A stretch of 31,966 bases of DNA, taken from assembly GCF_004010195.1 (NCBI RefSeq), contig NC_057717.1:104784937-104816902 (forward strand), read 5' to 3'. The DNA is from Chiloscyllium plagiosum (taxonomy: Eukaryota). This document shows, piece after piece, positions 1,941-31,966 of this stretch; position 1 is the first letter of the stretch, and each line of letters opens with the position of its first letter. The position numbers were made by a program, and so were the translations under genes. A model generated the notes under the pieces. It searched no databases, was not told the origin of the DNA, and saw only the letters and a list, made by a program, of their open reading frames with translations.

Positions 1941-2081
1941 TCTGGCCAGCCCTCTCCAGTTGACACAGTGAAGAGAGTCAGTAGAGCCCAGAGCACATTA
2001 TCGTAATGGAACTCATATCGTTTCCACTCCCGCTTCTGTGCCTTAATATCGCTTTCCTTCATGTAGACCAAGTATTGTCCT
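1941..2081 (-). CDS. CACNA1B: Cav2 calcium channel alpha-1 exon, repeat III extracellular loop and pore helix (141 nt, phase 2 to 2)
   Basis: tttcccttttctgtttcag|A GGA CAA...TGG CCA GA|gtatgt; translates [47 protein letters not shown], including the repeat III selectivity-filter Glu (TGEGW). Confidence 0.95.
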
Positions 2082-4198: not shown

Positions 4199-4847
4199 CA
4201 TTAATGGAAGTGAGGTTGAGAGGGTGGAGAGTATCCTCGGAGTGATGATTACTGACAACCTGTCCTAGACTTACCAGGCAGATACAACAATCAAGGAGGC
4301 ACAACCTCGCCTCTTCTTCCTTCGGCAGCTCAGCAAATTCCACACATCTATGAAGACCCTTGCCAACTTCTACAGATGCGCCATTGAAAGCATACTGCCC
4401 AGGTGCAGATCAGCCTGGTACAGCAACTGCTCTGCTCAGGACCGTAAGAAACTACAGAAGTTGGTGTGCACAGCCCAGACCATCACAGAAGCCAACCTTC
4501 CAATCCATGGACTCCATTTACACGGTTTCCAGCTGCAGAAAGGCTGCCAACATCATCAAAGACCCATCGCACCCTGGTAATGATCTCCTACAACCTCTTC
4601 CATCAGGCAGAAGATACAGAAGCCTGAACACATGCACCAGCAGATTGATGAATGCACTCTAGTCTCAAGTAATGCTGATCTTGTTAACGTTGATCTCGCT
4701 TAGCGCACACCCTGTGCAGTGTAACCCTATGCCCCTGTCTAAGTCTTTTTACAACCTCTGATCTGTACATCCTTGTTTACTATGATCTGCCTTTACTGCT
4801 CATAAACAAAGCTTTTCACCGTACTTCGGTGCAATGAGAATAAATCA
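4199..4847 (+). mobile_element. Rex1/Babar-type LINE 3' fragment, frameshifted
   Basis: KEAQPRLFFLRQLSKF, KTLANFYRCAIESIL and RKAANIIKDPSHPGNDLLQPLPSGRRYRSL match the post-RT C-terminal region of this clade; 3' UTR ends near AATAAA. Confidence 0.8.
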
Positions 4848-5605: not shown

Positions 5606-5920
5606 ATTTGATTAGATTAGATTACTTACAGTGTGGAAACAGGCCCTTCAGCCCAACAAGTCCACACCGACCCGCCAAAGCGCAACCCACCCAGACCCAT
5701 TCCCCTACATTTACCCCTTCATCTAACACTATGGGCAATTTATCATGGCCAATTCACCCTAACCTGCATATTTTTGGGTTGTGGGAGGAAACCGGAGCAC
5801 CCGGAGGAAACTCACGCAGACACGGGGAGAATGTGCAAACTCCACACAGTCAGTCACCTGAGGCGGGAATTGAACCCGGGTCTCTTGCGTTGTGAGGCAG
5901 CAGTGCTAACCACTGTGCCA
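5606..5920 (-). mobile_element. HE1-type tRNA-derived SINE, full length
   Basis: Minus-strand A box TGGCACAGTGG, B box GGTTCAATTCC, central tgtgtggagtttgcacattctcccc domain and (TCTAA)n tail. Confidence 0.92.
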
Positions 5921-7499
5921 ATGAGCCACTGTGCCATTGTTAATCAATGAGCTTAACTCATTCAATCCTGCTGTTGAAGACTGGGCTGAGTATGTGGAAA
6001 GAATGCATTATTTTTTCGGGCGAATGATATTGCAGTTGATGAAAAATAACAAGTAATTCTCCTAACAACTTTTAGACCCACAGCTTTTTCAGTTACTAGG
6101 AGCCTAACTTTCCCTGAGGCACTAGATACTAAAATCTTTCAAAAGTTGATGGATTTACTCAGCAATTTGAGAACCAGAGAAATCTGTATCGGAATTTTTG
6201 ATGAGGTTTAAGCAACTGGCAGAGGCATCTGACTTTGGTTTAACCCTTAATGAAATGCTGGGAAAATGTTTCATAATGGGATTAATAACGTAACCATGCA
6301 GTAGTGCCTACTAGTTGAATCCCAATTGGACTTCAAACAGGCACTAAACTGACTTTATCAGAACAAAATGTGGCAATTGGAACATATGATTTACAAATAT
6401 TCCAATGGAAGTGGACACCCTCACCAGCCCAAATGAGCTTGGGAGACACTATTTGAATTGCATAGCCTCGTTCAAGACATATCCTGAAAACAGATCATAC
6501 AACAGCAAAACCCAAAACAAAGCCAAGCCTTGACCAAACGGTGAAAATGTTTTTCAGTATCCGGGCCAGCAAGCCATTGTAGTTGCTGCCAGTATATGGA
6601 CACGAGACAGCAAAGGAGACCCACTAGACCTGAATTGTGGAAGAGAACTCAAAAGCCTGCATCTTGGAGAGTGCACACTCTGGAAAGTCCACCTACGTTT
6701 AGTTTGGAGCAGGTAAATTGCTTAGGAACATCCAGATCAGAATAATCAAATAATCAAAATCAATCAAAATAAACCTCTGGTTAAATGGTCACCTGGTTCT
6801 AATGGAGATCGATACCCACACACCCATTCCAGTGATCGCACAACTGGTCTTTAACAAAATTCACTCTGGACTCCAATCCTTACATTTGCATAAAACCTTG
6901 GCCAGACTGAGAACCTATACCAGTAGACCTTTACAAATTAAGGGTATAACTTTGGTTCTGGTCTCTTACAAGAAGCAGCTGGTTCAGTTACCATTGATTG
7001 TAGTAAAGGGCTCAAGCCCAAGCTTGATGGGATGAAATTGATTGAGAAAGATTCACCTAGATTGGCTCAACATCTTTTGATTCAAAATTAGTTGCCTGAG
7101 TGAAGTTTTCATTAAATACCCAGACGTTTTTCAGGAATATAAAGGGACTATCAAAGGAGCCAAGGCCACCTTGCATGTTGGCCAGGAAGCAATTCCATGA
7201 TTCTGCAAGACCTGCCCAGTGCCTTTTGCCTTATGAGCAAAAGTAGAGGCAAAAATCAGAAGACCCGAAAGCGAAGGAATCATTAAACCAGCCCAGTTTG
7301 TGGAACGTGCAGCACTGATTGTATCAATTGTGAAGCCCAATGAGTCAGTTTGCCTTTGTGGGCATTTTAAACAAATGGTAAACCACTTTGCCAGCTGGAT
7401 AAATACCCAATCCCTTGCAGGGAGGAATTATATGCAAAGCTGATGGGGTAGCTGTTCTTTATGAAGCTGACATGAGACATGCCTTCATGCAATTTCAGT

Positions 7500-7852
7500 T
7501 ATAGAATCCATACAGTGTAAAAACAGGCCCTTCTGCCCAACGAGTTCACACCAATCTTCTGAAGAGTAATTCACCCAGACCCATTCCTCTACCCTATTAC
7601 TCTATATTTACCCCTGACCAATGAACCTAACTTACACATCCCTGAACACTATGGGCAATTTAGCATGACAAATCCACTTAACCTGTATATCTTTGGACTG
7701 TGGGAGGAAACCAGAGCACCCGGAGGAAACCCACGCAAGCACAAGGAGAATGTGCAAACTCCACACAGACAGCTGATTCCCTGAGGCTGGAATTGAACCT
7801 GGGTCCCTGGTGCTGTGAGGCAGCAGTGCTAACATCTGAGCCACTATGCCAT
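7500..7852 (-). mobile_element. HE1-type SINE inserted in the Gypsy RT
   Basis: Same head, core and tail as 5606-5920; Gypsy RT sequence resumes after it, with an imperfect duplication ttcagtta/tccaatta. Confidence 0.9.
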
Positions 7853-11076: not shown

Positions 11077-11386
11077 GGGCGGCATGGTGGCACAGTGGTT
11101 AGCACTGCTGCCTCACAGCGCCAGAGACCCGGGTTCAATTCCCGCCTCAGGCGACTGACTGTGTGGAGTTTGCACGTTCTCCCCGTGTCTGCATGGGTTT
11201 CCTCTGGGTGCTCCGGTTTCCTCCCACAGTCCAAAGATGTGCAGGTCAGGTAAATTGGCCATGCTAAATTGCCCGTAGTGTTAGGTAAGGGGTAAATGTA
11301 GGGGTATGGGTGGGTTGCGCTTCGGCGGGGCGGTGTGGACTTGTTGGGCTGAAGAGCCTGTTTCCACACTGTAATGTGATCTAATC
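11077..11386 (+). mobile_element. HE1-type SINE, full length, relatively young
   Basis: A box 11088-11098, B box 11132-11142, many CpGs retained, LINE-derived tail. Confidence 0.93.
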
Positions 11387-11389
11387 ACT

Positions 11390-14143
11390 GTGATAAAAGT
11401 ACAGCACAGGAACCGGCCCTTCAGCCCACAATATTGGGACCAACATAATGCCAAATGAAATTAATCCTACCTGCGTGCTTTTGGTCCATATCCCTCCATT
11501 CTTTGCATATTCATGTGCTTATTTAAAAATCTCTTAAATACCTGTATCATATCAACCTCCACTATTATCCCGGCATTTCAGACTCCTACCATTCTGTGTA
11601 AAAAATGTCTCCTTTGAACTTTCCCCATCTCAAGATTCTGATCATCAACCTTATCTATGCACCTCATAATGTTATAGATTTCTATTAAGTCTCCCCTCAG
11701 CATCCACCACTCCAGAGAAAACAATCTGAGTTTTTCTAACTTCTCCTTTTAGCTCATTCCCTCTAATCCAGGCAGCATCCTGGTAAACCTCTTCTGCAGC
11801 TTTTCCAAAGCCTCCACGTCCTTTCTGTAATGTGGTGAGAGAATTTAATGCAATTCTCTAAGTGTGGCCTAACCAAAGTCTTATAAAGGTGCAATGTGAC
11901 AGCCTGACTCTTGTACTCAATTCCCTGACCAATAAAGGCAAGCATACGTTTTATTTACCACCCTATCTACTTACGTGGCCATGTTCAGGGAGCTATGACC
12001 TTGAACCCCAAGACCCTTCTGTACATCAGGGTCAGGGTCCTGCCATTAACTGTCCTCTTTTCCATGACATTTGATCTCTCAAAGTGCAGCACCTCACACT
12101 TGCCGGGATTAAACTCCATCTGCCAATTTTGCGCCCATATCTGCAACTGATATATATCCTGCTGTACCCTTTGATAACCTTCTACACTATCCACAACTCC
12201 ACTGATCTTTGTATTGTCTGCAAATGTACTATCTCACCCAGCTACTTTTTCATCTAAGTCATTTATATATATCACAAACAGTAGAGGTCCCAGCATGGAT
12301 CCCTGCGGAATGTCACTTGTCATGGATCTCCAGCCTGAAATATACCCTTCCACCACTACCCTCTGTTTTCTATGGGCAAGCCAATTCTGAATCCACGTGG
12401 CCAAGTCACCATGGATCCCATGCATCTTAATCTTTTGGATGAGTCTACCATGAGGGACCTTGTCGAAAGCCTTACTGAAATGCATTTAAACGACATCCAC
12501 TGGTCTATCCTCATTGATCAACTTTGTTGCCTCCTCGAAAAATTCAATCAATGAGTAAAACATGAACTGTCCTGCACAAAGCTATGCTGATTGTCCCTAA
12601 TTAGGCCATGCTTTTTCAAATGTGTGTAAATTCTATCCCTAAAAATTCTCTCCAATAGCTTCCCAAACACCGATGTGAGACTCACAGGTCTATAGTATCC
12701 CAGATTTTCCCTATTGCCCTTCTTGAACAGAGGAACAACATTGGCCACTCGCCAGTCCTGTAGGACCTCTCCATTAGCTAACGAAGATACAAAGATCTTT
12801 GTCAAGGACCCAGCAATTTCCTGTCTTACCTCTCTTAGTAAGCTGGGGTAGATACCTTTGGCCCCGGAAAGTTATCCGCCTTAATGCTCTTCAAGAGATC
12901 CAACACTGCTTCTTTCTAGATCTCAAAATGCCTTGAAGTGTTAGTGCTCCACACAAGTCTCACTATCCTTCATATTCTTCTCCTGGGTGATACTGATGCA
13001 AACTATTAATTTAGGATCTCACCCACATCCTCTGTCTCCAAGCACAAGTTCCCTCCTTTATCGCTGAGTGGTCCTACTTCTCCCAGTTATCCTCTTGTTT
13101 TTAATGTATCTACAGAATGCCTTGGAATTATCTTTCACCCTACTTGCCAAGATCATTTCATGGCCCATTCTAGCTCTCGTAATTCCCTATTTGAATTCTT
13201 TCCTGCTTTCTTTATATTCCTCACCTACCCTGTTCGATTTCAGCTTCCTAAACCTTACATATAGGTAGCTCTCCTGTAACATGGTGTGTGTTCCCATGCA
13301 ATGGCGTTGTATAGAAAATACAAGTAATAGCAATAGAAGTAAGAGGCCTCTGGGAAAAAGAGTTAGGGACTCTAGTTTAGCAAACCTGTCCATTTCTGGT
13401 CAGTCACAGAAATGCCAAGTTGTTACAAGCAAAATTTCCCAATGTATTATTGTATTCCCGGCTCCTTGTGCAGTGGAGTTTATCCAGAACCATTCCACAC
13501 CCAAACACCCTCTCTTGTAAAGTGCTGAAGCTGCAGATAGCCAGCAACTGAGCCTTTGCTTAACAAAAGGCCTTGCTTATGCTCCATTACTCGATGCACC
13601 TTTTTACACCCCCTATCTCCTTCTCTCTTCCTGCTCCTCAGCCCCCACCCCCCAACTCAATGCATGATCCCAGAAGGCATTCCAGCAAAATATTCCAACG
13701 TTCGTTTTCCCTACCTTAGTTGCAGATAGAAGCAAAGAAATATACACACATACACACGCGCGCGACACAACAGCCAGCTGGTAATACAGGTGATGGAATT
13801 GCATAACAGCGATTGGTCTGCAATTCACGAATTGCGTTACTGCCAAATCACGTTTACAAAATGCGCATTATAGGAGAACTATCTAAACGCTTCTTTTTTC
13901 TTTTGACTAAATTTAAAACCTCCCTGGTTATCCAAGAGTCCTTTCCCTTGCCATCCTTGACCTTCCTCCTCACTTGAACATGCCGGTCTTGAACTCTCAT
14001 CAACAGGTCTTTAAACAATTCCCATATGTCAAATGTGGACTTGCCTGATAACGACTCCTCCCAATTAACACTCCCTAGCTCCTGCCTAATACTGACATAA
14101 TTTGCCTTCCCCCAATTTAGTACCTTCCCACAAAGTCCAGCCA
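11390..14143 (-). mobile_element. CR1/HER1-like LINE ORF2 remnant
   Basis: [65 protein letters not shown] and LYKTLVRPHLE in order, with stops and frameshifts; 3' tail at about 11390-11430. Confidence 0.93.
13262..13885. mobile_element. Non-autonomous Tigger/TcMar-like DNA transposon inserted in the LINE
   Basis: Imperfect TIRs taggtagctctcctgtaac and attataggagaactatcta, preceded by TA; the LINE joins across it (ccttacata|..cgcttctttt). Confidence 0.7.
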
Positions 14144-14759
14144 ACTAAACTAACAAAGAGCAGAGTCCGTCATGGATTAACGGCGATGAATAGATATTTA
14201 ACAACCAGTAATCTTTCACAAAGCAAAAGGATTATGAAGAACACGTAAAGTAAGAACAAATCTTAATTTATATACATTTCAAAACATCAAGATGTTCCAA
14301 AACAATTCAAAGCCAACAAAGTATTTCTGAAATGATAACTGTAATGCAGGGAGATATGGCAACCAATTTGGACACAACAAAGTTTTAATCCATCTTTCAA
14401 TATTATCCAAGTCCAGGGAGCAAAAGTAATTCTTCCCCTGGCAAACCATTAAAAATGTAATTGCTTAAACAATTAAATTACTGGAAATTTTAATTCTTGC
14501 TACATGGTGGACTCTATTACATCTCTTATCACCCTCCAATACACATCAGCCTCTACTCAAGATGTGGAATGGCAAGTGACTGATCTGGAGGTTTCTCCAA
14601 CTTCCTGAAAGGTATAAAACAGCAGCTCAGAGGATGTTTTTATTTATTCACAGGGTACAGGTATTGCTAGTTAGGCCAGCATTTATTGCCCATCACTTGT
14701 AGCCCTTGAAAAATAAATCCTCTTCACATGTTTAATAGCTGTTGATCCTTCAATGTGTT

Positions 14760-14976
14760 CATGATTTGGAGATGCCGGTGTTTGACTGGGGTGTACAAAG
14801 TTAAAAATCACACAACACCAGGTTATAGTCCAACAGGTTTAATTGAAAGCACACTAGCTTTCGGAGCGCTGCTCCTTCATCAGGTGACCATCACCTGAAA
14901 GCTAGCGCTCCGAAAGCTAGTGTGCTTCTAATTAAACCTGTTGGACGATAACCTGGTGTTGTGTGATTTTTAACTT
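14760..14976. mobile_element. Palindromic Penelope-derived non-autonomous element
   Basis: Inverted arms 14798-14887 and 14891-14976; TSD cttcaatgtgtt (14748-14759) and cttcaaagtgtt (14974-14985). Confidence 0.85.
14852..14886 (-). ncRNA. Minimal hammerhead ribozyme, intact core
   Basis: CAC-CTGATGA-A-GGAGC AGC GCTCC-GAAAG-CTA-GTG: stem I CAC/GTG, 5-bp stem II, palindromic AGCT stem III, CUA cleavage triplet. Confidence 0.8.
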
Positions 14977-15045
14977 CAAAGTGTTGTTATTCAGGGTATA
15001 AGACACTGCACCCACTATTTTACAGCATGATATACTGGTGTTCTA

Positions 15046-15231
<186 letters not shown>

Positions 15232-15536
15232 CTAGATGGAAATAGTAATCAAATGAGAAAAAGTCACAACATTTGTCAAAACTGACAAGAATTAAACATC
15301 ATTATGTGTAACCATATTTTGTACAAGTTTAGCAAGATTTCCTATCAGCCTTTGTCTTTTTTACTTTTGAGATCTCACTAGAAGTACAAGTTTTCTCAAC
15401 ATGTTTATTATAAAATTTTACATGGCCATACAGTAGTTATTTCACATTCCTAACAATCCTGTAATGCTGTGTTTGTGTCCAAATAATGGAGGAAAGAAAT
15501 TGTGTACTGAAGACAGTCCAATTGAATTTGCATTAC

Positions 15537-15633
15537 CTTGAGCTTAGGCAGCCGTTTGATAGTTTTAAGGGGTCGTAGCACTCGAAGTACTCTCAGAGAT
15601 TTGATGGTGTTCAGATCTTTCCCTTTGCTCCCA
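15537..15633 (-). CDS. CACNA1B: Cav2 alpha-1 exon, IIIS3-S4 loop and IIIS4 voltage sensor (97 nt, phase 2 to 0)
   Basis: ttattgctag|T GGG AGC...CTC AAG|gtaatg; [38 protein letters not shown] fits CACNA1B rather than CACNA1A (GNSKGKD). Confidence 0.96.
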
Positions 15634-17019
15634 CTAGCAATAAAATAAAAAAAATCATAAAATAAGACAATACTAGATTGGAACTTTGGGTAAATATGGT
15701 TGTTTATGTACAACTGTTCCTTTCTTAAACATTTAAAAACTCACCTTATTTCAGGAACATTACCAAACAGGATCTCATATTTATTAGAGTAAATATAGTC
15801 ACCTCGAATGACGACCTCGGCAAACATATCAATTGTGCAACCTTTTCTCACTATTTTCAGGGTCAATTGTAATTTACAGTATTTTATCATTCTCTTTCTA
15901 TTATTTTAATTGTGTTTCAGTGCAAAAATGAACTGATCTAAGAAAAGCAGGCAGCTTTAGATGTTTAAGTTTATTGAAAGACAATGATAGTCTCCATCAA
16001 AAGTAAGCCATTGCGTGTCAGTTGGCGACATGCTGCAATCTTTCAATTAGTTAAAGCACTGCTAAACACATTTCTCAAACTACTCACAGAACAAAACCTG
16101 ACCACGATCATCAAATATCCTAAAATGTGAAAAAATGCAATAACTAAACCAGGATGGAAACATCTCATTCAACAACAGCAATAGTTTGTTTCATAAAGCT
16201 CCTGTGAAGCACATTGAACTGCTATCTAAGTATGAATAATTTTTGTTGTTATCTTATCCCAGTTAAGGGTACTGAATGTGTTTTGCAGTTATTTTCCATA
16301 CTACTGTAAATCATTATTTGTCACACAATACGTAATACTGAAAATTATGTTGGAATGTTTGTACGTGGAGGTAAAAGCCTTGACATTCCAATTATATTTC
16401 ACACCATAAAGCCAATAGTAAACATTTAGGAAATGGATTAGTCATTGGTACACACATTAATTACTGTGAATTATAAGTCCAGTTGTTCAATTGGGTATCT
16501 TGAATCTAAAAGGGTAGAAGATTCATGTCCTCCAAGAGTTTCTTTGTCAGTAATGTTAATTAAACCACAAAGAGAAAGTGAAACAATGTTTAAATACAAA
16601 CTCTGAAACAGAAAAATTGGAAGACTAAGCCCTTTCTTTTGCATCTTGCTGATCTAAATGAGGCATGTCAATACTAGGAAATGAAACAACAATTTAAAAC
16701 CTAATTAGTTTTATATTCATTAGTATGTCTCATCCCCAAGCTGAAAATAAGCCCCCTATTTTCCACAAGTGAGACATTTTTAATTTCTAGAACCAAATAT
16801 CCACTGGTCTTTTTAAGTGAACTTGTCAACTTACATCCAGTTCAGGCCACCACATTTTTCAGGTTCAAGAAATGACTCATTGTTTGAATTCTAATGTTTC
16901 ATTATAAGATAAAAATGAATGCAAAATGCCATAATGCTTTGCGTTAATGAACGTTTTCCTTTGTCTGATAGTGGGCATCAGTGGGCTCCACCCACAGGCT
17001 TGGGTTCTACCCTAAATGT

Positions 17020-17345
17020 CCTTGTATTGAGTGTATTGTTAAGGCTGTTTCAAAGGACAGTAAAGTGTTAGCCAATTTGCTGTAGGTCTGGAGTCAAATG
17101 TAGGGCAGATCAAGTAAAGACAACAGATTTCCATCCCAAAAGATCTTTTGTGAACTACATTGGTTTTTACAACAATTTATAGACTCATGATTACCATTAC
17201 TGAGACTAGCCTTCAATCTCAGATTTTATTTAAATTTAATGATGAATTTAATACTTAAAACTGAATTGAAATTCTTTCAGCTATGGTATTAACCTAGGCC
17301 TCTAGATACAAATCCAGTGACATTGCTACTTTACCGCCATCTTTC
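17020..17345 (-). mobile_element. Old SacSINE1/DeuSINE-like element
   Basis: gctgtaggtctggagtcaaatgtagg...ggtttttacaacaat...attactgagactagc...aatccagtgacattgctact; recognised by pattern only. Confidence 0.5.
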
Positions 17346-18435
17346 TTAGTCTCACACCCTCTAAATTGAGAAGGGACACCAGTGTGAATTTAATAGTAAT
17401 TTTATACAAACAACATGTGGGGGTACAGGGAAAAGGCAGAAGAACGGCACTAAGTTGTAACACTCATTGGATAGCAGTGCAGACACAATGGGCCGAACAA
17501 TCTCCTCCTGCACAAAATGCTGTGGTGATTCTTCTGTAATACATTTGATACCTATTTCTTGTGGGAAATTTTTCTGGACTTGAGTCATTCAGATTTTTAT
17601 GTAAATCAAGTACAGATACAGCCTGACCAATATTAACCATTAAACCATTAAACCTTCCTTCATTCATTCTTCTTAGGTCTAATTTGCTAAACATAGGGTT
17701 TCTACCAAATTGTGAGGTTCTTTTTAGCATAAATTTTATGTATTTCTATATATACACAATAATGTGTAACCCATAGCTGTGTACTGCTGAACTACTTGCA
17801 GCAAATTGACATTTTTGAAGACCTGGATATATCTAATCATCAGAAAGGTATTGTATTTCATGAACATAATTTCTCAAATTCAATTTCAGTGCTGAGGTAT
17901 TGAATCTCACCAACCTAAATTAACAGACCAAGTGACATTATTCAGCCCTAATGTCTGAATTCACATTTGTATTGTATTAAAACTGCACCTTATATCCAAA
18001 TGAAGATGTAGCTGGAGCCAGATTCTGCAAGGAGGTCCAATAGTGTGAGATGCTTTTAAAAAATATATTCATACATTTATGGAAAAAGGTTTTATTGTTG
18101 AGCCAATGCAAAATAGGTCAGCTCATCATTGAAAGTAAAATAAACTGGTCTATTTGTGCATAAAATATATTGTAGGCTACTCAGTTCAAAACTGGATATG
18201 TGGTCACTTTACTGTAGTTACATTATTTATGAAGTCAGCCTCAGCACTATCTGTTACAATGGCATACCCTGCACCAAGCAGAACTGCAACATAATCACTT
18301 ACCAAAAAGCACAGATATACATATATAAATAGATATAAAATTGAGAATGAGAGAAATATGAAGAGATATACAGAGAAGAATAGAACACAATGCAAATTTG
18401 CTGACTATTATAAAGAGAAAGAGCAGAAATATTAC

Positions 18436-18447
18436 CCCATAAGGCTC
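18436..18447 (-). CDS. CACNA1B: 12-nt alternative microexon e24a (inserts SLMG in the IIIS3-S4 loop)
   Basis: cactgac ccttttctcgtctttcttgacttgctggatcag|GAGCCTTATGGG|gtaata; phase 2-2; matches mammalian e24a (SFMG/SFVG) in size, phase, position and peptide. Confidence 0.88.
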
Positions 18448-21400
18448 CTGATCCAGCAAGTCAAGAAAGACGAGAAAAGGGTCAGTGTAAAAAAAAAACA
18501 AAAAAAGCTTTTACACATACTTCAAGTACAGAGGTGAATCAGACTGAGAAAACAGAAAGCACAGTTATAAAAACCTGAAGGACCAATACAGACAATGCAG
18601 TAAATAGGGAAACAGGACACAGGAGACACAAAGCACAGGCCCCAGCAATCATGTCAGCCATGCTACATTAAGTAACTTGGTCAGGAAACAACTTCCCTCA
18701 ATGTATTTATATTATTTTGGATAGGAAACCATTGCACCAGACTGTGTTCATATCACATCTGTGACCAATTACAAGCTGTAAAGTAACTAAAATTATTCAC
18801 TAATGCAAATGATACTCCAACAACACAAGTTCTTATTAGATGCTGCTTAATGTCATCACAGTGTAGATTATAGGAAATGGTGTGACAATGCAATTCAAAG
18901 TATATGAAATTAATTTCTCTGATCTTTTAAGACTTAATGCTTAAGAAAGAAATTGTTTTAATGCAACTTTCAGTGCCTAACATAGACGCAACACAATGAA
19001 CATGTTTTAGTGCTGCTGCAGTGGAGAGCAAAGTCATTTTTATAATACTCATAAGACACTGTGAAGTAAGATTTCCAAATGGTATCATAGTTGAATAGTG
19101 ATCTAATCTAATCTAGTTATTAAATTACAAAAGCTTACAAAATTGATTTCTACAGATAAAACAAAACAGGAATGTTATAAACAACCAATAAATATGGACA
19201 TTTCAATTTCCAGTTGGGGATCTAATTAAAGCTTCTCAAAGAGGCAGATTTTTCATGATCATGAATAAATAAAACAGAAATGCTTGTCCAGTATCCTATT
19301 TCCTGTTTCCCTCTTTTATTCCCCTGCATATTTCCTGAGAACATGCAATCCTCCCTCCAAATTTCCAAGTAGATGCCTGATTTACAGGGTTTCTGACATA
19401 GTGTCTGACTATGGATAAAACATGAAGTTTCAGCTTGGATGCAAACTAAGCCACAGAAAAGTGGCCTTAATGGTTTTATCCCATTCCTCTCTACTCTTCA
19501 GTCTTCTCTGCTGTTTTGCATTCCTCCAGACTGAGCAGACAGTGCTTATCTATTTATCCATCCACCCACTATCATATTCTTAATTGGGAGAAGACACAAG
19601 TTGACAAGAAAAAATATTTCCTATTGGAAACAAAGATTGATCAAAACTTTAGTAAAAATTGCCTCATTGCAAGATAAATTCATCATGACAACCCACACAA
19701 TGAGTGCAGAGGAATAAGAAACAGCAGAAACTTAGTCATAGTTATTAAATGGAAATTAGAAGTGCTGGAGGAATTAGTTCATTTCAAAAGTCAAACTAAA
19801 CTTTATTTAATTTGCCATCAAATTATAAATTTTAAGTTAACCTTTGCCCATCGCACCCCCCCCCCTTCCCGAACAAGTGCCAAGACTATGTTAGTTCACA
19901 TCTTATCCACAGGTCAGCCAGTAAGAGGATGCTATTAATAATGTTTGGATACACATCTACTGGTTAGGAAACACTGAAGAGATTGCCACAATTATTGGTT
20001 ACTGGATTATAATATATACCGTGTATGGAATGGCTTAATATATATTGCAATACTTTTTAATAAGCTTGCAAAAATCCAAGACTGAAACTATTACAACGAA
20101 AATTTATATTTGAAAGTTTTTTTTTGCTTCCCTCTCCGATCCAACATTGAGATAATGTTCCAGAAACACTGATAGCTCTTTGTATTGCATCCAAATGGTC
20201 ATTCTACAGGTGGGATGGTCAGTGTTAACTGTGAAGGGAAATCATCACTGACTGATCCTATTTACATTCAATGCATAGATTGTAGTTGAAGTTAATGAAG
20301 AGTGAGCAGCTAATACTTTTTAGGTTAAGAATACACTAATTGTGTAGACTAATTGTCGTAGCCTTACTGCCACACCAATTCTGTGTTTACCAGGGATGAA
20401 ATCCCATAACCTCCTGATCTGTACAGCATAGTGAGAATTAGATGCATCAATGGGGGAGCCAAAGACAGTATATGTTACATAAAATGTTACTAAGCAGTGA
20501 GTCTGTAACCTAGTCTCAGGGGTTATTTTGTTAATTCAGATCACAAAAGCCCTGGGATCAAGTTACAGATTGCTGTAACATCCTTTTTGTTCTTCCATGT
20601 GTCACAGCCCGTAACCAGAGAGGGTTTAAACAAATGCCTTACCCATTGCAGCACCACAACGCTACTTAAGAAATCATTCAGTTCAAGGATTGCTGATTGT
20701 TTGGTTCATTAAATTTTCTAATCTCTGCATTTCTTTAATCTCTGACATGAGAGACTAAAGAAATGCAGTCAACGTGCTAAACTAACATTTCTGCTGACAA
20801 TTCCATGCCTGACAGAACAAACAACTATTGTCCTCTGATATGACAGAACTTAAATATTAATTCTTGATGTAAATACCATAGTCAAATATACACCAGGAAA
20901 CAGCAATTGCAATTCAAGATAATGGCCTTCATTTTTCCCCTTTCCAATTTCTCTCTTCTTGTGAAAGCATTGACTGATTGCTGGCCAATAGTACCACAGA
21001 CTAGTTAATTTCTGATATCTAGCCCAGTGACTCCCAGGGTCAATTCCCACTTGTTCTAGAAGTGTGTCATAATATAACTATTCTTCTAAGGTAAACCCAG
21101 ATGATGCGTTGACTAGATAGTTTAATCACAGTTGAATCCAATCTGTCCATCCTCAATACCTCACATGCAATTTCTATTTGAAGTCATTGGGTGTAAGTAA
21201 TACAAATGGGAGTTCTGGCTGAGATTCAACTTGCTCTCAAATATATCCCTAATATTTGTAAGGATAAATTCCCAGATGAACATTGGCATATACAGATCAC
21301 AAGACATACTCACTGTTCTAACACCATCCGTATAGTTAGCCAATTAAACAAGAGCATCATAGAAGCACGCACAGTTGGCTTCAGTGTCACTTGGCTGATG

Positions 21401-23335
21401 AGAAGAGATGGTGGTGAGAAGAACTTGAATAGTTATCAAAATTCTAGGTTACTATCCTTCTACTGGAAAATATGTCACAAGGTGTGAACATTCGGTTAAG
21501 GAAGGATCAGGATTATCTGTGATGTATCTGTAGTCAACACTCACTCTCTATTCTCACATAGAAAGGACAGTCACTTCACCCCAATGCTAATCAGATGAGC
21601 CAGCAAAAGTCAGTGCCTTCAGGAAAGAGCAGAAAATTACATGTATAAAAGAAAATTGAGTGAAAATGTGGTTTATAAAGTCTTGTACATAAGAACACAT
21701 TGTATAAAGTAGGCACATGATAGGGAGTGATGGGTGGATATGCAAAAGGAGGGAGTATAAAATCATTACATAGCTAGAAAATCTAATTTGGCAACTTGAA
21801 CTTTGTACAAAAACACACTGAATGTATTTCTTGAGAGAAAAATTGACAGAAGTTGGACTGAAATGGTTATAGGTGGATAGGACAGGATAAAGGTTGTTTT
21901 GAAGGTTGGTTTGGTGGGTTACAATCTCTTGAAAGGTCCTTAAGTAAATGAACCAAACATGACATCAGAAAACATGGTTATAGCTCTGATGTTACTTGAC
22001 ATTCTCTTAAGCAATTACTCATACTGTGCATTTTCCACACAATCACACACAACAATGCAATATAACAAAACCAAAATACAATCAATCTTCCACAAATAGC
22101 CAAAAATTCATCTTTTAAATTGCTTAGAAAAAGAAAGCAGGGTTAACACATCAACTACATTTGACTACTAAAATATACCATGCCACGATCTAAGAAAGCA
22201 ACTCATGACAGAGAATACTCGTCATATGACTAAGATTCCTATTTTATCACTGGATCACTTGAATGATCTCTGTATTGACTGTCATTGTTATATTCTGCAG
22301 TCACAAACAATTGATAACAGGCCAAATTTGTTTGATATCACACCTTCTGAAGATGCTATTCAGCAGTTCAGTATATGGATAGCTGAGGCCTGAGACAATT
22401 CAGTAAAATAATAAAGATAATGTGAATTGTGGTTCGCACAGAGCTTGCAATATCCATAATTATATTCATTAATTGTGACTACAAGTAGAAAAATGAATCT
22501 GATGAAGCCATATAGGCAGAACCTTCTGTGTATAGTTACTGTAATACACAGTAATTAGACAGAGAAGGTTGCGTTTGGCGCCATTTACGTACTTTTATCT
22601 CATTTTTCTTTACACTTACCTCTGCTGAAAGCACTATCTAGGGTAACATTCTAACGGTGCTTGTGAGTCTCTGGTATTTCAACAAAGTGGGTAATATGCA
22701 ATGAAAGTCAGCAGAAACTTTGACCACGGAACAACATTTCAACTGAATCAATCCTTGTAGCGTATCCCAAGCCACGGACTTTCCAAAAGGGACTACTGAA
22801 TAACAATCAAAGAAAGCTTAATTCTGACTCTGCCTTGGTGAAAAGCTAACTCATAAATGTGGCAATGAACTTTGCTGGTTTGTTCAGTAAAATCCCCTCA
22901 GGCTAAGGAAGGTTCCAGATCACCAATTATTAAGAAACATAGCAAATGCACGCAGATTAAGATGCAGACTTTTCACCTTCCTATTGAGTTTCTGCATTGA
23001 GTTAGGATGACTGGGTTCTTCCCCACCTTCAACCCCAGGGAGAACAGCATTTTGCCATGCTTTGTAATGGTTCCAGCAGTTGGTTATATACTTGCACAAT
23101 GAAACCTTTGGATCAGGGCCAAGACCTCAATCCATTTCTGCTACTCGTCAGCAGGAATAATGGGATATGAAGACATACAGAATAGGGAGTATATGAAAGA
23201 TATAAATATGGAGGGGGAAATTGTAAAATTAAAATACTTAATGTCCTCTGAATATCACTTAAATACTAATGAACAATCCGGCTCACAATAAATATCTTTA
23301 ATAAATCCCAGCGCCAGCTGCGTTGGGTGATTTAC

Positions 23336-23383
23336 ATTTCAGAGGACTCCTGATCTGACCCCAACTCCGGCGATGGTGGCTTC
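23336..23383 (-). CDS. Candidate novel cassette exon (24 or 48 nt; KPPSPELG or KPPSPELGSDQESSE+I/M)
   Basis: About 40-nt AG-free pyrimidine tract ending caacag; two donors (GG|gtcaga after 23360, AT|gtaaat after 23336), both phase 2-2 and stop-free; donors only moderate. Confidence 0.45.
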
Positions 23384-25239
23384 CTGTTGAGAAAGGTAAA
23401 AGGGATTTAAAGAAAAAAAACATAAGCTACATAATGCTACCGCCATGCTCACAAATGCAGAGTAGCTACACTCCTTGCTCTGACTGGGCTGACCCCCTCA
23501 AAAAACATTTTTTCAAAAGTCTGCATAGGAAAATTAATGCACACAATGTCTTCTGTGAGTTGGGGGTCAAAGCCAGTCACAGCTCCAATGACAGCACTAC
23601 CTTAGGGAGCATCTACATCATAGGATCCACATTATGCATACTAGAAATAAATTGCTGTGCTAAAACAATGCCACAACTAAACACAATTGGTAGCCAATGA
23701 TTTAAAAACTTCATTGAGCTATCAATGGTGCCCAGATTCAGTGCATAATAGTAACCGTGTGTCATTGATCTACGTCTTCTAACATGCACTGCCTATTGAT
23801 GCTAGGCAACACAAGCTGGTGAGAGCTGGCAAGAACCGCAAACAGACAACGTTGGCTATTTCTCTACTGGCATTCACTTATTTAGCTTTGTCGTTTGTTA
23901 TTATTTTTGTTCTCCCCTGCACTTCTCCTGATGATGTTGACTCATGCTTGAGCATAATTTTATGACTGGTGCCATTTCACCACCATTTTCCTTGAGTGAT
24001 CATGTGTGGGAGTGGACAATTCATAGGAGGAGAGGGTAGCCTTGAGCAAGATTCTGTCAAAACCTAATGCGAACTCTACTTTTAATAGATATTGATTAAA
24101 AAAAAATCTGGCTGATTTTTCTATCTCGGGGCGCCCAGTTTAGTTATATCAGCATAGCCATCAGCAAGCTCTAAGGCAATGTTAGAATATTCTCTTTCAC
24201 TAATCCTCTATTAATTTATATTCAGGAATCATATGGTGGTGGCAATACAATGATGACACACTGTCAAAATAACAAAAGTGGGATTTTGTACCACATGTGA
24301 CTGGTATATTGTTTATTTCACGACTCACAGGTGAAAATAATAAAGAGATGATATGGGCCCACAAAGCTTTGGTATTACCTCCACGTACAGGGCTTTTAAA
24401 TTAGTATCAAAAACAAACGAAGATGATCAATTCCTATGAAATGAATAATATTAAAATTCAACTGTGTATTAATCCAAATGATTTTACAAATGTTAAAATT
24501 AATAGAAGTTTAAATAATTATGACAAGGTTCAACTCTCATTGCATGAAAAACTCAGAGGCACTCGGATACCTTCTTCTCCTTGCTCAATTTGTGCATGAA
24601 CCTTGGTGGTGAATATGCCATGTCCTGGTGCATTTAGTCTATACTAACATAGCGCTTTTACCCATTGGGTCTTAGAATGATACGTGAATAGTTTAAATGG
24701 AAATGCACACTTCAACCTATATTTGATTTTTACATAAATTTTATAATGGGACGACCCCACTATCTGCCAATCAAAAGGAATCCCAATTTGGGCGCTAGCT
24801 ATTTCACAAATCCTTAGTGTACAATTTCTACCAGGTAGAGAAATTCAGCTAGTTACATTTCAGACAGTGAGGGAAACATTCTGCCAGCAAGACAAAAATC
24901 TGATTGTTCTAAATATTTATGTTTTACCAAGCTTCACATTCAGTGGCATGCAGAGAGCCAGTTGTGAGCATTTTATATGTTGTCAGGCAGCCACCTACAA
25001 GCAGAAAATCTACAATGGTGTAGAAGTACAAATAAAGTAAGAATCTTATGTTAATTAAGAAAAATAAGTAGGTTAATTCTTAATGCAGTGCATTCAGTAG
25101 ACTAAGGGAAGTTCACAAATGATTAACTATTTATTGAGGAATGGGCTTAATCACTGAACATCACATAAAGTAAATACTATTCAAATAAAAATACACAAGG
25201 ATGATAGCAAAACTGGGACAATATAGTAATAAGGAAATA

Positions 25240-25585
25240 ATAGATAGACTGAGCCTCTTTTACAGACGTTGTTAAAAATATGACAGGGCTTGATAGACCA
25301 AATGTAGAAAATGTTTCTACTTAATAGAGGAGTTTGCAACTAGAAGCCATAAGTCGTCACCAATAAATCCAATTGAGAATTTGGAAGAAACTTGTTGATC
25401 CAGAGAGTGGGATAATATTAAACTTGCTACTACAGTGGTTGAGAAAAACAACATTTAAGGGGAAATTATATAAGTCATGAGGCTGAATATGAAATGAAAA
25501 TAAGTGGAAGAGGATTGTGAGGAGCATAAATGCTCAACATTGGGCCGAATGATCTGTTTGTAGATTGCAGATTTTAAGCAATTGT
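25240..25585 (+). mobile_element. Highly decayed CR1-like LINE 3' end
   Basis: ttaaaaatatgacagggcttgatagac...caactagaagccataag...ttgggccgaatgatctgtttg. Confidence 0.55.
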
Positions 25586-25847
25586 ATTAAAACCGTTCCA
25601 AGCTTTTGTATCCTCCATTCCTTGAAGACAAACAATTCAATATTGAAAAAAAAATACAATATTTTTCCAGAATTACAGAAGTCACGATTTTATTAAGGAG
25701 AGAATAAATGTGAGGTTCATCAAGATAAAGGCCGACAGTTAAGGAATGCTTGGTGAGAGACCAAAAAACTGCTAATGCTGGAATCCAAAGTAGACTAGCA
25801 GGAGGCTGGAAGAACACAACAAGCCAAGCAGCATCAGGAGGTGGAGA

Positions 25848-25882
25848 AGTCGACATTTCGGGTGTAACCCTTCTTCAAGACT
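25848..25882 (-). ncRNA. Hammerhead motif, mutated
   Basis: AGTC-TTGAAGA-A-GGGT TAC ACCC-GAAAT-GTC-GACT; C3 changed to U. Confidence 0.6.
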
Positions 25883-27275
25883 AGGGGTGGGTGTGGGGGG
25901 AGCTGCAGAAAAAGGGAAGGAGAGGGCAGAGTGTGAAGTGGGGATAGGTGAAGACAGATAGAGGGTACGACCTGTTGGTCAAGGGGAAGAATTAATCCGG
26001 TTGGTGGCAGGGAGCAATGGAAGAGAGGGGGAAGGGCTGGGAAGGGAGTCGAGGGTTGGGGTGGGAGGTTATTTGAAATTGAAGAACTCAATGTTAAGTC
26101 TACCGAGCTGTAGGGTGTCCAGGCAAAAGATAAGGAGTTGATCCTCTAATAGGTGCTGTGGTTTGTTATGGCAATGGAGGGGGTCAAGGATGGTCATGTC
26201 TACCTCAAACCTCCAGACTCCTATAACTATCTGGACTACACCTCCTCCCACCCAGTATCCTGTAAGAACTCCATCCCATTCTCCCAACTCCTCCGCCTCT
26301 GCCACATCTACTCGGATGAGGAGACATTCCACTTGCAAGCATCCCAGATGTCCACCTATTTTGAACAATGTGCTTTTCCTCCTTCCCTCATCCAGACAGG
26401 CCTCTGCCACACCACCTACATTCCCCATTCCACCGCTCTAAACCTCCCTCCCTCCCAATGCAATAAAGACAAAGTCCCCCTTGTCCTCACCTATCACCCC
26501 ACCAGTCTCTGCAGCTAATGCATCACCGTCAAACACTTCTGCCAACTTCAAATGGACCCTACCACCAAGATCATCTTCACCTCCCACCCCTCTCTGCCTT
26601 CCACAAGGAAGAACACAGCAAGCCAGGCAGCATCAGGAGGTGGAGAAGCCGACTTTCTGAAAGTCCTTGGTTTACGCTACCCCCACCACCGAACCCCCAG
26701 GTACATTCCCGCAACCAGAAAAGGTACATCACCCCCGTAACCTCCATCCAGGGCCCCAAACAGTCCTTCCAGGTGAGACAGAGGTTCACCTGCCTCACTT
26801 TCAACCTGGTTTACTGCATCAGGTGCTCTCGATGTGGTCTTCTCTACATCAGGAGACTGAATGTAAATTTAAGGAATGGTTCACTGAGCATTACAGCTGG
26901 GCCTGCAGGGGCTGACTGGACCTCCCAGTCACCACCCATTTCATTTGCCCTTCCCACTCCCTTTCTGACATGACGTCCTTGGCCTCCTCCATTATCATAA
27001 CAAACCACAGCTCCTATTGGAGGAACAACACCTTATCTTCTACCTGGGCACCCTACAGCCCGGAGGACTCAACACTGAGTTCTTCAATTTCAAATAATCT
27101 CCCTCCCCATTACCCGACTCCCTTCCCAGCCTCTCCTCCTCCCTTCCACTGCTCCCTGTCACCAACCGGATTCATTCCTCCCATTGACCAGCCAGGTCAT
27201 ACTCTTCACCTATCCCCACTTCACCACCCTGCCCCCAATACCCCTTTATCTGCAGCTTCCCCTACGCTCACCTCC

Positions 27276-27310
27276 AGTCCTGAAGAAGGGTTATACCCGA
27301 AAGGTCGACT
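27276..27310 (+). ncRNA. Hammerhead motif, near intact
   Basis: AGTC-CTGAAGA-A-GGGT TAT ACCC-GAAAG-GTC-GACT; 4-bp stem I; stem III palindrome broken by C to G. Confidence 0.7.
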
Positions 27311-28250
27311 TCTCCACCTCCTGATGCTGCCTGGCTTGCTGAGTTCTTCCAGCCTCCTGCCTGTCTAGTTAAGGAATACTTGCCTCTTTGTGATAACTTC
27401 CAATTCAATTTTAGCAAGGATCCCCACAATCATTGCACCCTAACATTACTTTTGGGATGCTATAGAGTTACCAATTTTTTCTAAACTTGTGGGCAGAAAT
27501 GTCCTAGTCCCTTGATCGTGTGGGCAATGGTGAGTCAGTTGGGAAAATATGGCAATATCAGAAGGTATTAGAGCTCTTGATATTGAGAAAACTGATTCTG
27601 CATTCGTGTTTTGAATAACGCGACAAGAATCTCACATGGTGAACAGCGAGAGGTCTATCCATTGGTGATGGGTCAAGTTCCTCAGCACAAAAGTATGATT
27701 GTGTAGGTTTATGTGATGGATATCTTTGTTTGCATGTAAAGCAATGAAGCAGAAGCATGAATGTCACAATTGCCCCTGAGCTCCAAGAAAAGCATTGAAG
27801 GGCCGATATCATGTTTAAGTTTGTTGAGAAAAACCATGATGTTGTTGTGATGCTAGTGATTGGCTGATGCCAACTTGTGTGGTTGAACAATCATGGTCCA
27901 TAGACCATGAAGGTCATCTGAGGTAGCAAGCATTAATCGAGTTGCAGCTGCCAGGGACCTCCTCTGATTTACTTGTCAGGAATTTGCGTGTCTAGTTTCT
28001 TGGAAGAAGTGAGGAGAATCAGAACTGACATACAATGTGTGAATCTTGGGTTTTAACAAGATACAAATATGAAAATAAGGTCGTTACCACACAATGACTG
28101 AAATTCTGAAGTTGCCACCTAAAGCTTGAGGGGAAATTTGGGAAAATGTTATTCCGAGGCACAATCTGATATTTTTCACAATCATTATCAGCATATGTCT
28201 AAGTAAGAATACCCAGTTAGTACTTAATTACAGGTAGTGTAATTGTGAAT

Positions 28251-28321
28251 TTAAATCTTAATTAGTACAAATCCACAACTCGTGGATTGTGCATTATGAA
28301 TTTGTATTAATTAAGATTTAA
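28251..28321. repeat. 71-nt inverted repeat (28-bp arms, 15-nt loop)
   Basis: ttaaatcttaattagtacaaatccacaa versus ttatgaatttgtattaattaagatttaa; 25 of 28 Watson-Crick pairs. Confidence 0.85.
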
Positions 28322-29254
28322 CTGAATTCAGTGTAAAGTTAAGGTGCTTGCAGTTCTCATCTGTTTTCCTTTCCTTAGGCTTGAGAATGATATGGAAATT
28401 CAGAAATGTTTTGGGTTTTCTCTGCACAGTTTTAGGCAATGTGTAGCTGAATTCACATAAAGCTGACATCTGAAGCTCAAAATAATCATCACTTAGAGAA
28501 TTTTACAGATAGAAAATAAACCTGAATAAATTTTCATTCAGAATTGAAACTTTATAGCACATTCCAAGTTCCACTTGAATTTGTGTTCCATTTGAGGTCG
28601 ATCTCAATTGCTGCGTGTAAACTGTTATTCTTACCTGGATGTAAGAAGTCCTTACATTGTCATTCAGATGAGATGCTGGGGAGATTCACACGGATCTCTA
28701 ATTGATATTGTTAGCTTCTCAGTTATCTGAGTATTAAAGAACCCCCCCTTTTAAAAGACGCTTCTTTGCCCAACACAGGCCTTGATCACTGGTGATCCTC
28801 ACTGCCTTGAGGATATAGAAGGCAGACAAGGGAGGAGAAATGCAAAAAAAAAACCAAGAGAAAGGCCCTCCAATGGTTCCACTGTTAGATGCACCACATT
28901 TTCGATATGGAGTGTCACAGAACAAGAAGATATTATTGCTCTGTGCTGAGGTAACTGAACTCAGCTACGCTGCCAATAAGTGTACTTAGTATCCTTAAGA
29001 TAGTGAAAACAAAGAAAAATAAGAAGTTGGATTCGTGTTTCTAGTCACTCTGTGACCGTGCTGACACCCACAGTCCAAGTTCACAAATGAAGACCAGTGA
29101 TTTGGGTGAGATACCCAAGCAACAGTCAGCAGCTTCAGGTGAGAAGGGGAGAAAATTTGAAAAAAAAAGACAAGAAATGACAATTAAAACATTTCAGTAA
29201 TGAAGGTTTGAACACTGGATGAGTCCAAATGTTCCACTCTGCATGCTTGTCCAC

Positions 29255-29301
29255 AGAATTGATATATTACTATTTTTAAGAATTGATATATTACTATTTT
29301 T
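29255..29301. repeat. Perfect 23-bp tandem duplication
   Basis: agaattgatatattactattttt at 29255-29277 and 29279-29301. Confidence 0.9.
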
Positions 29302-30146
29302 GGTATCTCCATTTCATCATTTAATGACCTCAAATAAACCGTAGACACGTTTAGTGGCAATTTAATATATTTTTGGATCTTTTGTCATGGATGTAACATA
29401 AGACAAAAACGTCACATTTTGGTGACACTGTTTTGAAATCTCACCAAAATAGCTTCAAGCAGCGAAACCCAATGTGACGTGCATCAACATGCAACATGCA
29501 ATTATATCCTTTGACAGGCAGACCTTATGTGCTATTTTCTCAGCCATTGATTGACAAAATATTCAAAAGGGATCTATCTCAATTATCCAATGAACGTGCA
29601 TCATGGGATCGCCTTCTTCCATAGCAACAGGGAGGGAAGGTGATTCCACTCTAGTTTTTGAACATGATCAGGACAAGTGATTTGGTATGTGCCAATGAAT
29701 CACATGGATTCTACCTACTTACTGTTTTTGTTGTACAAGAGCTGTCATTGTGCATCAAAAAGTCTCAACAACAGTGAGAGTGGATTTCCCATGTGTATTT
29801 CAGCAACAGCAAATAACTTGTCCCAGACAGGAACTTAGGTATAGAAATCCTACTATATCAGCGTGCAACAAGTCACCTCTGATGTAAAGTAACAGGGACC
29901 ATAAAATTCATAAGGTTTGTAATTTTCTTAAGTTCTAATTGTCCAAAAAAGTTTAAAACATTCATATTTCTAGTTTAAATTTGTCTGAATAACCATTACT
30001 TGGAATGAACATTTACATTCATGTACACCATTTCATTAGTTAATACTTTCCCATTTTTATCTTAGTTCTTCAGTTTTCTTTACCTAATCTGACCACAGCC
30101 TAAATTATTCATAAATGAGAGAATGGCTAGACAACACATTCTCAGA

Positions 30147-30217
30147 TTCTGGATTAGTGGTGCTGGAAGAGCAAAGCAGTTCAGGCAGCATCCAAGGAGC
30201 TTCGAAATCGACGTTTT
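30147..30217 (-). mobile_element. 71-bp Penelope terminal fragment with a perfect 14-bp TSD
   Basis: aacacattctcaga at 30133-30146 and 30218-30231; the insert's reverse complement resembles 10330-10390. Confidence 0.85.
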
Positions 30218-31801
30218 AACACATTCTCAGAATCCTAGTTCTGTTCTTCTCCAACTTACAGATGGATTGTCTGATGCTGACTTGCTTTCCCTCAAGCAAA
30301 AGAACCATTACAATTGAATGGCTTATGCTCTGGACCATTTCAATAGATCAACTGAGATCTCAAAATTTACCATGGGGCTGATGATTTTCTGTCCCACTCA
30401 GCTGTCATGTTTGAACAGAAAATACAATTAATATGTTATTAAAATGCAAACTTGATGCCACATAATTCTTTGATTAAGCTTGCCTATATCTTATCCTCTT
30501 CAATTTGGTGATGTCCTGCACAGTGGGCCTTGATCTTTCTTCTGGGTTCGGCAAAAGAAATTTGAGGTGTTGAAACAAGAGGATCTACACTTGATCTCCC
30601 CTTTAAGGGATTTCTAACATTTGGAAGCTAAATTCCAGTTTCACCACTCTGCACTAAGGTCTGATTGAAATGCTAGCTATCTAACAAATATTCCAGGTTA
30701 GCTAATAGTCTCAAATCTAATCAAGAATTCAGATACGTACAAATATCGAAATGAAAAACAGTCAAGAATCTAATTAAGGGTTTGGATGATTTACTTACAC
30801 GGCACACTATAGACTAAAACTAATTGAGAGGTTCAGATAGTTTTTATACGATTAGGGATATCTGGCAATGAGTTGCAGTCAAACCAAATTACAGAGTTTG
30901 GATCTTACGCAAACATTTATAATGTGCAAAAATCAGTAGAAACTTTCAAAGGCAAACTGCACTTGAATAGGAGAAATTTGCAATGGAGAAACAATGGGCA
31001 ATGGAATAAATTAGACAGTATTTCAAAGAACTGGCACAGAATTTATGGATTGAATGGGCTCTTTTTATACTATCTCATTTTGTATAAACCTCAAATTGTA
31101 GACTATTGACTTGACATTACTATATTATAGGCTCATCATTTATTTTACTCAATTTTTCAATGGTCAATGAATAACTGATAAAGGGTCACTTTCCACTGGG
31201 AGGTTATACCTTTCACACTGAGGAATCAAAGACTGTGATATCATCACAAATCTAATAAGCAATTTTAGTCAGGAATGTCTGTTTCTCTGCATGACAGTCA
31301 CTGATTTTGCAATCTATTTAATGGAGGGAAAATCACAGGCTGTCACTTGTATAAATGAAAACTCTCAATCACTTTCTGATACTTTATTTTTACAATCTTA
31401 CATCCCTTAGCATATACCCAACAGATTACGGGGTCAGAATTACTCAATCATTGTAAATTGATTCATGAAGAGTTACCAAGTCATTTCCAGTTAGATATTC
31501 ATAAAGACCTCCTATTTTGCAGATGAACTTATGACGAATTCACATAAAGTACTTCTGCCCATGTCAAAATGCTGATTATTCTAAACATTTCATGCAAAGA
31601 CTTGTGAACAAAGTCTTGAGACCAAAACTGTGGAGGAACAATACTATTCACAGCAGTTAGATCAGGACAACCACGAGACTTCAAAACCAGGTTTTAAATT
31701 CTCAGTCATCCAGCCCAAGTAAAAACAAAGGAAAGTGAAGTAATATGGAATCACAAACTTTGAAAATAGGAAATAAAAGTACAAACACTAGAAGTTCAAA
31801 G

Positions 31802-31966
31802 TTTGAGAGACGATTTGTAGCTCGGGTGCTCGTTATTGTGGTTCTGTTCGCCGAGTTGGGAATTTGTGTTGCAGACGTTTCGTCCCCTGTCTAGGTGACA
31901 TCCTCAGTGCTTGGGAGCCTCCTGTGAAGTGCTTCTGTGATGTTTCCTCTGGCATTTATAGTGATT
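31802..31966 (-). mobile_element. Penelope-like element terminus, continues beyond the window
   Basis: CpG-rich young sequence carrying a hammerhead; layout like 451-600. Confidence 0.75.
31871..31910 (-). ncRNA. Minimal hammerhead ribozyme, intact core
   Basis: GCA-CTGAGGA-T-GTCACCT AGAC AGGGGAC-GAAAC-GTC-TGC: stem I GCA/TGC, stem II 6 of 7 pairs, ACGT palindrome, GUC triplet. Confidence 0.82.

Follow-up and report, generated by a model that had tools for sequence, protein, structure and literature searches.

A strong splice-acceptor look-alike with two weak, frame-keeping donors, probably a pseudo-exon, in the Cav2 intron that holds an e24a orthologue

The window, the whole stretch of 31,966 nucleotides of Chiloscyllium plagiosum DNA analysed here, holds on its minus strand three exons of a Cav2 channel gene, which encode the IIIS4 segment, the IIIS5 segment and the pore loop of domain III. 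Identity of the three exons to Cav2.1 and Cav2.2 proteins ranges from 83 to 100%, as expected of a Cav2-type alpha1 gene. For the pore exon, identity over the full length was at most 83% to any protein of the library; the 89% identity to the fragments P0203 and P0208 refers to its last 35 residues only. The upstream IIIS3 exon was not found within the window, 16.3 kb of the intron between IIIS3 and IIIS4 being present. All features are collected in the table.

Features of the Cav2 locus in the window (positions are those of the window; slashes mark exon borders)
Feature	Position	Strand	Basis and remarks
Domain III pore-loop exon, 141 nt	1941..2081	-	translated search
IIIS5 exon, 161 nt	15071..15231	-	translated search
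IIIS4 exon, 97 nt, T GGG AGC AAA ...	15537..15633	-	translated search
e24a orthologue, 12 nt, SLMG	18436..18447	-	cag/GAGCCTTATGGG/gtaata; adds to domain III S3-S4 loop
Single-copy, CpG-retaining patch holding the candidate	23146..23892		12 CpGs; about 0.75 kb
Putative terminal-exon end	23297..23334	-	TAA 23334-23332, ATTAAA 23302-23297; sequence only
48-nt candidate exon, KPPSPELGSDQESSE plus AT	23336..23383	-	donor AAT/gtaaat, GT 23335-23334, score -0.6 to -0.9
24-nt candidate exon, KPPSPELG	23360..23383	-	donor GGG/gtcaga, GT 23359-23358, donor score 0.5-1.1
Acceptor-like site	23384..23428	-	41-nt AG-free pyrimidine-rich tract, cag end, AG 23385-23384; weight-matrix score 9.1-9.5
Possible branch points of acceptor-like site	TTTAC (A at -14), CTTAT (about -42)	-	sequence

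Within this intron, 2.8 kb upstream of the IIIS4 exon, an e24a-like microexon reads G AGC CTT ATG GG. No other of the 69 AG-12nt-GT sites in the intron part codes for S-x-M followed by GG. In the fetched proteins the corresponding site reads SSFMGGSKG in four N-type channels, and TSSSRGSSKG, TSNSRGSSKG, TSSARGSSKG, TSSTRGSSKG and similar sequences in the P/Q-type channels. The available text of PMC10657410 gives the peptide at this site as SSTR for alpha1A, SFMG for alpha1B and AFDS for Aplysia, and e24a/SSTR of human CACNA1A is described in an excerpt of PMC11580629. On the strength of its unique coding and of the comparison with SFMG and SSTR, we attribute the SLMG peptide to an e24a orthologue of the alpha1B type. 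Judged by its sequence, the microexon is a clear e24a orthologue in this genome and a secure by-product of the analysis. The sequence-only reading that preceded this work had named 18447 as a splice partner of the candidate; the anatomy that it assumed is right, the e24a orthologue at 18447-18436 lying in the intron of the candidate.

At the same site, the Cav2.1 proteins P0033, P0141, P0007, P0011, P0138, P0143 and P0146 carry a four-residue insert (SSSR, SNSR, SSAR, SSTR or SNVR). They come from birds, reptiles, paddlefish, carp and lungfish, which indicates that the e24a microexon is widely annotated in CACNA1A outside mammals. Some proteins showed odd IIIS3-S4 loops that could be artefacts of prediction: P0149 has an insert of 50 residues, and P0015 and P0134 have GGGG(G).

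The identity of the Cav2 paralogue was assessed by scoring the three exons separately against more than 170 Cav2 proteins, with no cartilaginous-fish sequences among them. The best Cav2.1 proteins matched at 121 of 133 positions and the best Cav2.2 proteins at 118 of 133, so that the exons are not nearer to Cav2.2 than to Cav2.1, by a small difference. The e24a peptide SLMG, on the other hand, is of the alpha1B type (SFMG) and not of the alpha1A type (SSTR/SSSR). As this peptide points to Cav2.2 and the exons around it are not decisive, we take Cav2.2 (CACNA1B) to be the probable host gene. The earlier assignment to Cav2.2 is thus backed by the microexon, whereas the coding exons lean slightly the other way. 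Their marginally greater closeness to Cav2.1 could stem from Cav2.2 having changed faster in bony vertebrates.

Several repeats and other elements accompany the exons. Just downstream of the IIIS5 exon, at 14764-14976, a palindromic element with 73-nt arms (96% complementary) has a word depth of about 1.1 million in the DNA run X1 and attracts many single-cell RNA reads with poly-T loose ends. Its copy number and these reads point to a highly repeated, transcribed element of MITE- or SINE-like type. A minisatellite of about 13 copies of a 31-32-nt unit occupies 3607-4031. At 5618-5928, 7502-7851 and 11081-11374 lie three copies of a SINE-like repeat whose head resembles a tRNA; they are 79-95% alike, and one is inverted. 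Fragments of a LINE reverse transcriptase (RVT_1, E = 3e-11 and 4e-4) lie at 12234-12871 on the minus strand, and an ALKBH8_N-like reading frame at 4269-4580 on the plus strand. Finally, 25788-27370 is a composite repeat of high copy number with inverted arms of 215 nt (86%) and 146 nt (84%); it contains the acceptor-like site 25902 discussed below.

The candidate exon lies deep in the intron that also holds the e24a orthologue, upstream of the IIIS4 exon. Read directly on the minus strand, the sequence is tgttttttttctttaaatcccttttacctttctcaacag/GAAGCCACCATCGCCGGAGTTGGG/gtcaga, which corresponds to an acceptor tract, a candidate exon of 24 nt and a first donor. Reading past the first GT leads through ...TCAGATCAGGAGTCCTCTGAAAT/gtaaat to a second donor and a 48-nt form. 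The candidate begins with the G at 23383, directly after cag, and the 41 nt upstream of it are free of AG, with pyrimidines at 16 of the 20 positions from -23 to -4. In its 24-nt form the frame is G AAG CCA CCA TCG CCG GAG TTG GG, which encodes KPPSPELG; the 48-nt form continues with TCA GAT CAG GAG TCC TCT GAA AT, to give KPPSPELGSDQESSE plus AT. The letters given in the sequence-only reading (an AG-free tract of about 40 nt, entry at 23383, GT after 24 and 48 nt) agreed exactly with those read here, and its statement that the frame has no stop holds through both donors, TAA appearing only at 23334-23332.

Both candidate lengths are multiples of three without an in-frame stop, and their phase fits the e24a orthologue and the IIIS4 exon downstream. 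The latter starts at 15633 with T GGG AGC AAA, where one base completes a codon, and this is the phase that the candidate needs. Phase 2-2 had been proposed for the whole intron: its downstream side is seen in the IIIS4 exon and e24a, whereas its upstream side, at the IIIS3 donor, is taken from orthologues. As the IIIS3 exon lies outside the window, the intron is longer than 16.3 kb. The candidate shows the splice-site signals of a cassette exon, an AG acceptor preceded by pyrimidines and a GT donor, although its donors are weak. The first donor (GGG/gtcaga) has a C at +3, and the second (AAT/gtaaat) has neither G at -1 nor G at +5. C at +3 is rare among real donors, as is the absence of both G-1 and G+5. 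A recursive splice site was also considered and rejected, as the base after AG is followed by AAGCC and no GT is regenerated.

If the acceptor were used and both donors were skipped, the candidate frame, which stays open until ATG TAA, would run into the stop at 23334-23332. This could create an alternative terminal exon, polyadenylated through ATTAAA and encoding a channel truncated after IIIS3. The in-frame TAA, which follows the 48 nt immediately, and the ATTAAA 30 nt beyond are in line with such an exon, but ATTAAA is common in AT-rich introns and the proteins examined offer no precedent at this site, so that we regard a terminal exon as very improbable.

Splice sites were scored with a crude weight matrix, not with MaxEnt, which makes the ranks useful but not the absolute values. 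On this scale the acceptor of the candidate reached 9.5, compared to 10.4 for the pore exon, 3.1 for the IIIS4 exon, 2.2 for e24a and 1.7 for the IIIS5 exon. It ranked second among the 988 AGs of the 16.3-kb intron part. Only three of the 2131 gene-strand AGs in the whole window scored at least 9, namely the candidate, 25902 and 2081. The site at 2081 is the acceptor of a real exon; 25902, the only intronic site that outscored the candidate, lies inside a repeat and has no in-frame donors. On the opposite strand, three of 2013 AGs scored at least 9, none of them with an in-frame donor. The acceptor is thus truly exceptional, which speaks against dismissing the candidate as a mere pseudo-exon and, together with the two frame-keeping, stop-free donors and the phase shared with e24a and the IIIS4 exon, in favor of a real exon.

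The donors, in turn, scored 0.5 (first, D1) and -0.6 (second, D2), which is below the 2.5 and 1.6 of the constitutive IIIS4 and IIIS5 exons and favors a pseudo-exon, as do the C at +3 in D1 and the missing G-1 and G+5 in D2. However, the real donors of e24a (GGG/gtaata, -0.7) and of the pore exon (-0.8) score no better than those of the candidate. Weak donors therefore do not exclude use in this gene, and in this respect the candidate is on a par with real exons of its own host.

To estimate how often such a configuration arises by chance, an in-frame donor was defined as an open, frame-keeping GT 12-60 nt after the AG with a score of -1 or better. At least one such donor followed 192 of the 2131 gene-strand AGs (9%), and two followed 12 of 2131; in the intron part, 63 of 988 AGs had an open, frame-keeping GT. 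With two strong decoys among the gene-strand acceptors, three on the other strand and the 9% donor rate, about 0.2 look-alikes of the candidate's kind are expected per window, or roughly one window in five. This base rate, along with the low prior for use of any deep-intronic AG...GT pair, supports the pseudo-exon and weighs against a cassette exon. When the intron part was simulated with a first-order Markov model, the picture was less permissive: an acceptor of at least 9 with an in-frame donor was obtained in 13 of 300 (4%) and one with two donors in none, though simulations of this kind under-produce pyrimidine runs. In view of these numbers, the splice-site configuration of the candidate is unusual and moderately beyond chance expectation, yet not significant given that very many windows were scanned.

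The surrounding DNA was then considered for its CpG content and copy number. Between 23251 and 23450 there are 6 CpGs, with an observed/expected ratio of 0.72 compared to 0.24 for the intron part. Only three of the 323 windows of 200 nt in the intron part contain at least 6 CpGs, and the other two belong to a highly repeated element near 31700; at least 5 CpGs are found in 15 of 323. The bin 23306-23972 showed a word depth of 18 in the same-species DNA run X1, within the 5-23 of other unique bins; at a likeness of at least 92%, it occurs there as a single copy. No copy of the candidate stretch was found elsewhere in the window. The sequence-only reading had remarked that CpGs are retained here in otherwise CpG-poor, non-repeat DNA, and both the CpG excess and the absence of repeats were borne out. 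A position in one of the three most CpG-rich of 323 windows, in single-copy DNA, counts for a cassette exon and against a pseudo-exon. On the other side, the CpG-retaining patch is far wider than the exon with its flanks, and the local CpG excess can thus be seen as a trait of the 0.75-kb patch rather than of the exon, as would suit a pseudo-exon.

The patch itself could be functional but non-coding, for example an enhancer within the intron or a splicing regulator of e24a, in which the exon-like signals would be incidental. Its 12 CpGs against the ratio of 0.24 for the intron, its single-copy state and its lack of a transposon protein remnant or an Rfam family would agree with such an element. 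Rfam gave no matches over 22000-25000. Pfam gave none for seven of the eight neighboring reading frames, and for the eighth (22920-23126) three sub-threshold matches with E 0.09-0.19, below curated cut-offs and taken as chance. On the other hand, the predicted RNA fold of the candidate region showed no structure beyond that of shuffled sequences (z = -0.13), no motif was enriched and windows with at least 5 CpGs are not rare. We consider a non-coding element improbable. The splicing-factor motifs YCAY, GCAUG, UGC and CU-rich were not enriched around the candidate, which agrees with a pseudo-exon; they were not enriched at the real e24a either, and their absence is therefore a weak point against the candidate.

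Evidence for use of the candidate was sought in RNA data. In the single-cell poly(A) RNA run X5, 2145 reads fell on 11967-31966, 98% of which continued into unlike sequence, as expected of repeats. The X5 depth in the bin 23306-23972 was 0 and 0.07, and it was near zero on unique sequence generally. A second poly(A) single-cell RNA run, X6, gave no reads on 11967-31966, and the unclassified run X7 resembled thin genomic DNA. With near-zero depth on unique sequence, the RNA runs showed no joint at any exon of the host gene. Among the bins that look unique, 17970-18636 alone had some depth of single-cell RNA, namely 2.8, with the first mate on the minus strand. This bin holds a long T/A run beside e24a, and its reads may stem from internal priming on pre-mRNA.

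The insert was also sought in the isoforms of Cav2 proteins, of which 170 were fetched and 142 had a recognizable IIIS3-S4 loop; none came from a cartilaginous fish or a close relative. A KPPSPELG-like insert was present in none of the 142, the four-residue e24a forms being the only recurrent inserts. This argues for a pseudo-exon and against a cassette exon, but in a set with no cartilaginous-fish isoform the absence of the insert says little. The plus-strand frame of 113 aa that covers the site, which served to probe for genomic frames of relatives, returned five candidates, none with E<=1, and a metagenome scan for the candidate exon with degenerate CpGs gave no matches. A literature search on extra exons in the Cav2 IIIS3-S4 intron found none, and one on ray Cav2 clones found only reviews on Cav2.3.

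We conclude that the candidate is probably a pseudo-exon, unexpressed or included at noise level, in which a strong 3' look-alike is followed by two weak GTs deep in a Cav2 intron. The sequence features and their frequencies are as given above, and non-use of the site is what we infer from them. U1 would pair poorly with either donor, owing to C at +3 in the first and the lack of G-1 and G+5 in the second, and the spliceosome would not define the exon, at which no enhancer signature appears to stand out. At most, noise-level inclusion would result, with little harm because the reading frame is kept. The peptide is also unlike that of e24a (SFMG/SSTR/AFDS), whose true orthologue lies elsewhere in the intron.

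In a rival reading, the one proposed from the sequence alone, the candidate of 24 or 48 nt is a real cassette exon peculiar to this lineage, which would add 8 or 16 residues to the extracellular IIIS3-S4 loop, alone or together with e24a and probably in restricted neurons. Besides the acceptor, frame, phase, donors and CpG content discussed above, its location speaks for it: an excerpt of PMC10657410 shows that the IIIS3-S4 loop is an established hotspot of splicing in animals from molluscs to mammals, a point that also counts against a pseudo-exon. Longer S3-S4 inserts moreover occur in other Cav channels, for instance with exon 29 of Cav1.1 (available text of PMC6161609). A stretch of 24-48 nt is too short for a coding signal, and with the expected look-alikes, the deviant donors and the lack of a similar insert in Cav2 proteins a cassette exon appears unlikely. 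Slightly more doubtful is the fuller proposal of a second lineage-specific cassette upstream of e24a, with which it could give up to six loop lengths beside the voltage sensor of domain III; the proline-rich or acidic insert of 8-16 residues, new to Cav2 channels, that this proposal includes is to be viewed with the same doubt.

If such an exon were real, a Cav2 channel would for the first time show an insert that exceeds four residues in its domain III S3-S4 loop. This loop lies beside the voltage sensor, and its alternative splicing predates the divergence of molluscs and vertebrates; a longer insert would amount to a natural experiment, in one vertebrate lineage, on the influence of loop length on gating or toxin binding. 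As things stand, the candidate is a well-formed but unsupported splice-site look-alike, that is, in our preferred reading, a pseudo-exon.

Among known systems, the closest is e24a itself (SFMG in Cav2.2, SSTR in Cav2.1), which shares with the candidate the intron, the protein loop, a weak donor, preservation of the frame and the phase, with one base that finishes a codon and two that begin the next. It differs in size, with 12 nt and 4 residues compared to 24 or 48 nt and KPPSPELG(SDQESSE), an unrelated peptide, so that the candidate is not an e24a proper; it is also located 4.9 kb further upstream than the e24a orthologue. According to the available text of PMC10657410, e24a is conserved from Aplysia (AFDS) to mammals. 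Splice-dependent effects of SSTR in Cav2.1 have been modelled (excerpt of PMC11580629).

The e31a exon (ET in Cav2.2, NP in Cav2.1) is likewise a short cassette beside a voltage sensor, but it belongs to the S3-S4 loop of domain IV and thus to a different intron. It is regulated by Nova-2, as stated in an excerpt of PMC5633781. According to PMC10657410, activation kinetics are changed by the insert in domain IV but not by the one in domain III. The premise of the sequence-only reading that S3-S4 microexons alter gating is accordingly valid for domain IV, whereas for domain III activation kinetics are unchanged. That a longer, proline-rich or acidic insert in domain III could act differently from e24a is speculation.

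Longer inserts in a linker of this type are exemplified by Cav1.1, in another channel family and another domain than the candidate. The insert encoded by its exon 29 is 19 residues long. For this exon, use and function are established, the spliced insert in the IVS3-S4 linker having an effect on gating (available text of PMC6161609). Intronic pseudo-exons, finally, resemble the candidate in their deep-intronic AG...GT pairs, open frame and weak donors; compared to a typical decoy of this kind, the candidate has a much stronger acceptor, among the top 3 of 2131.
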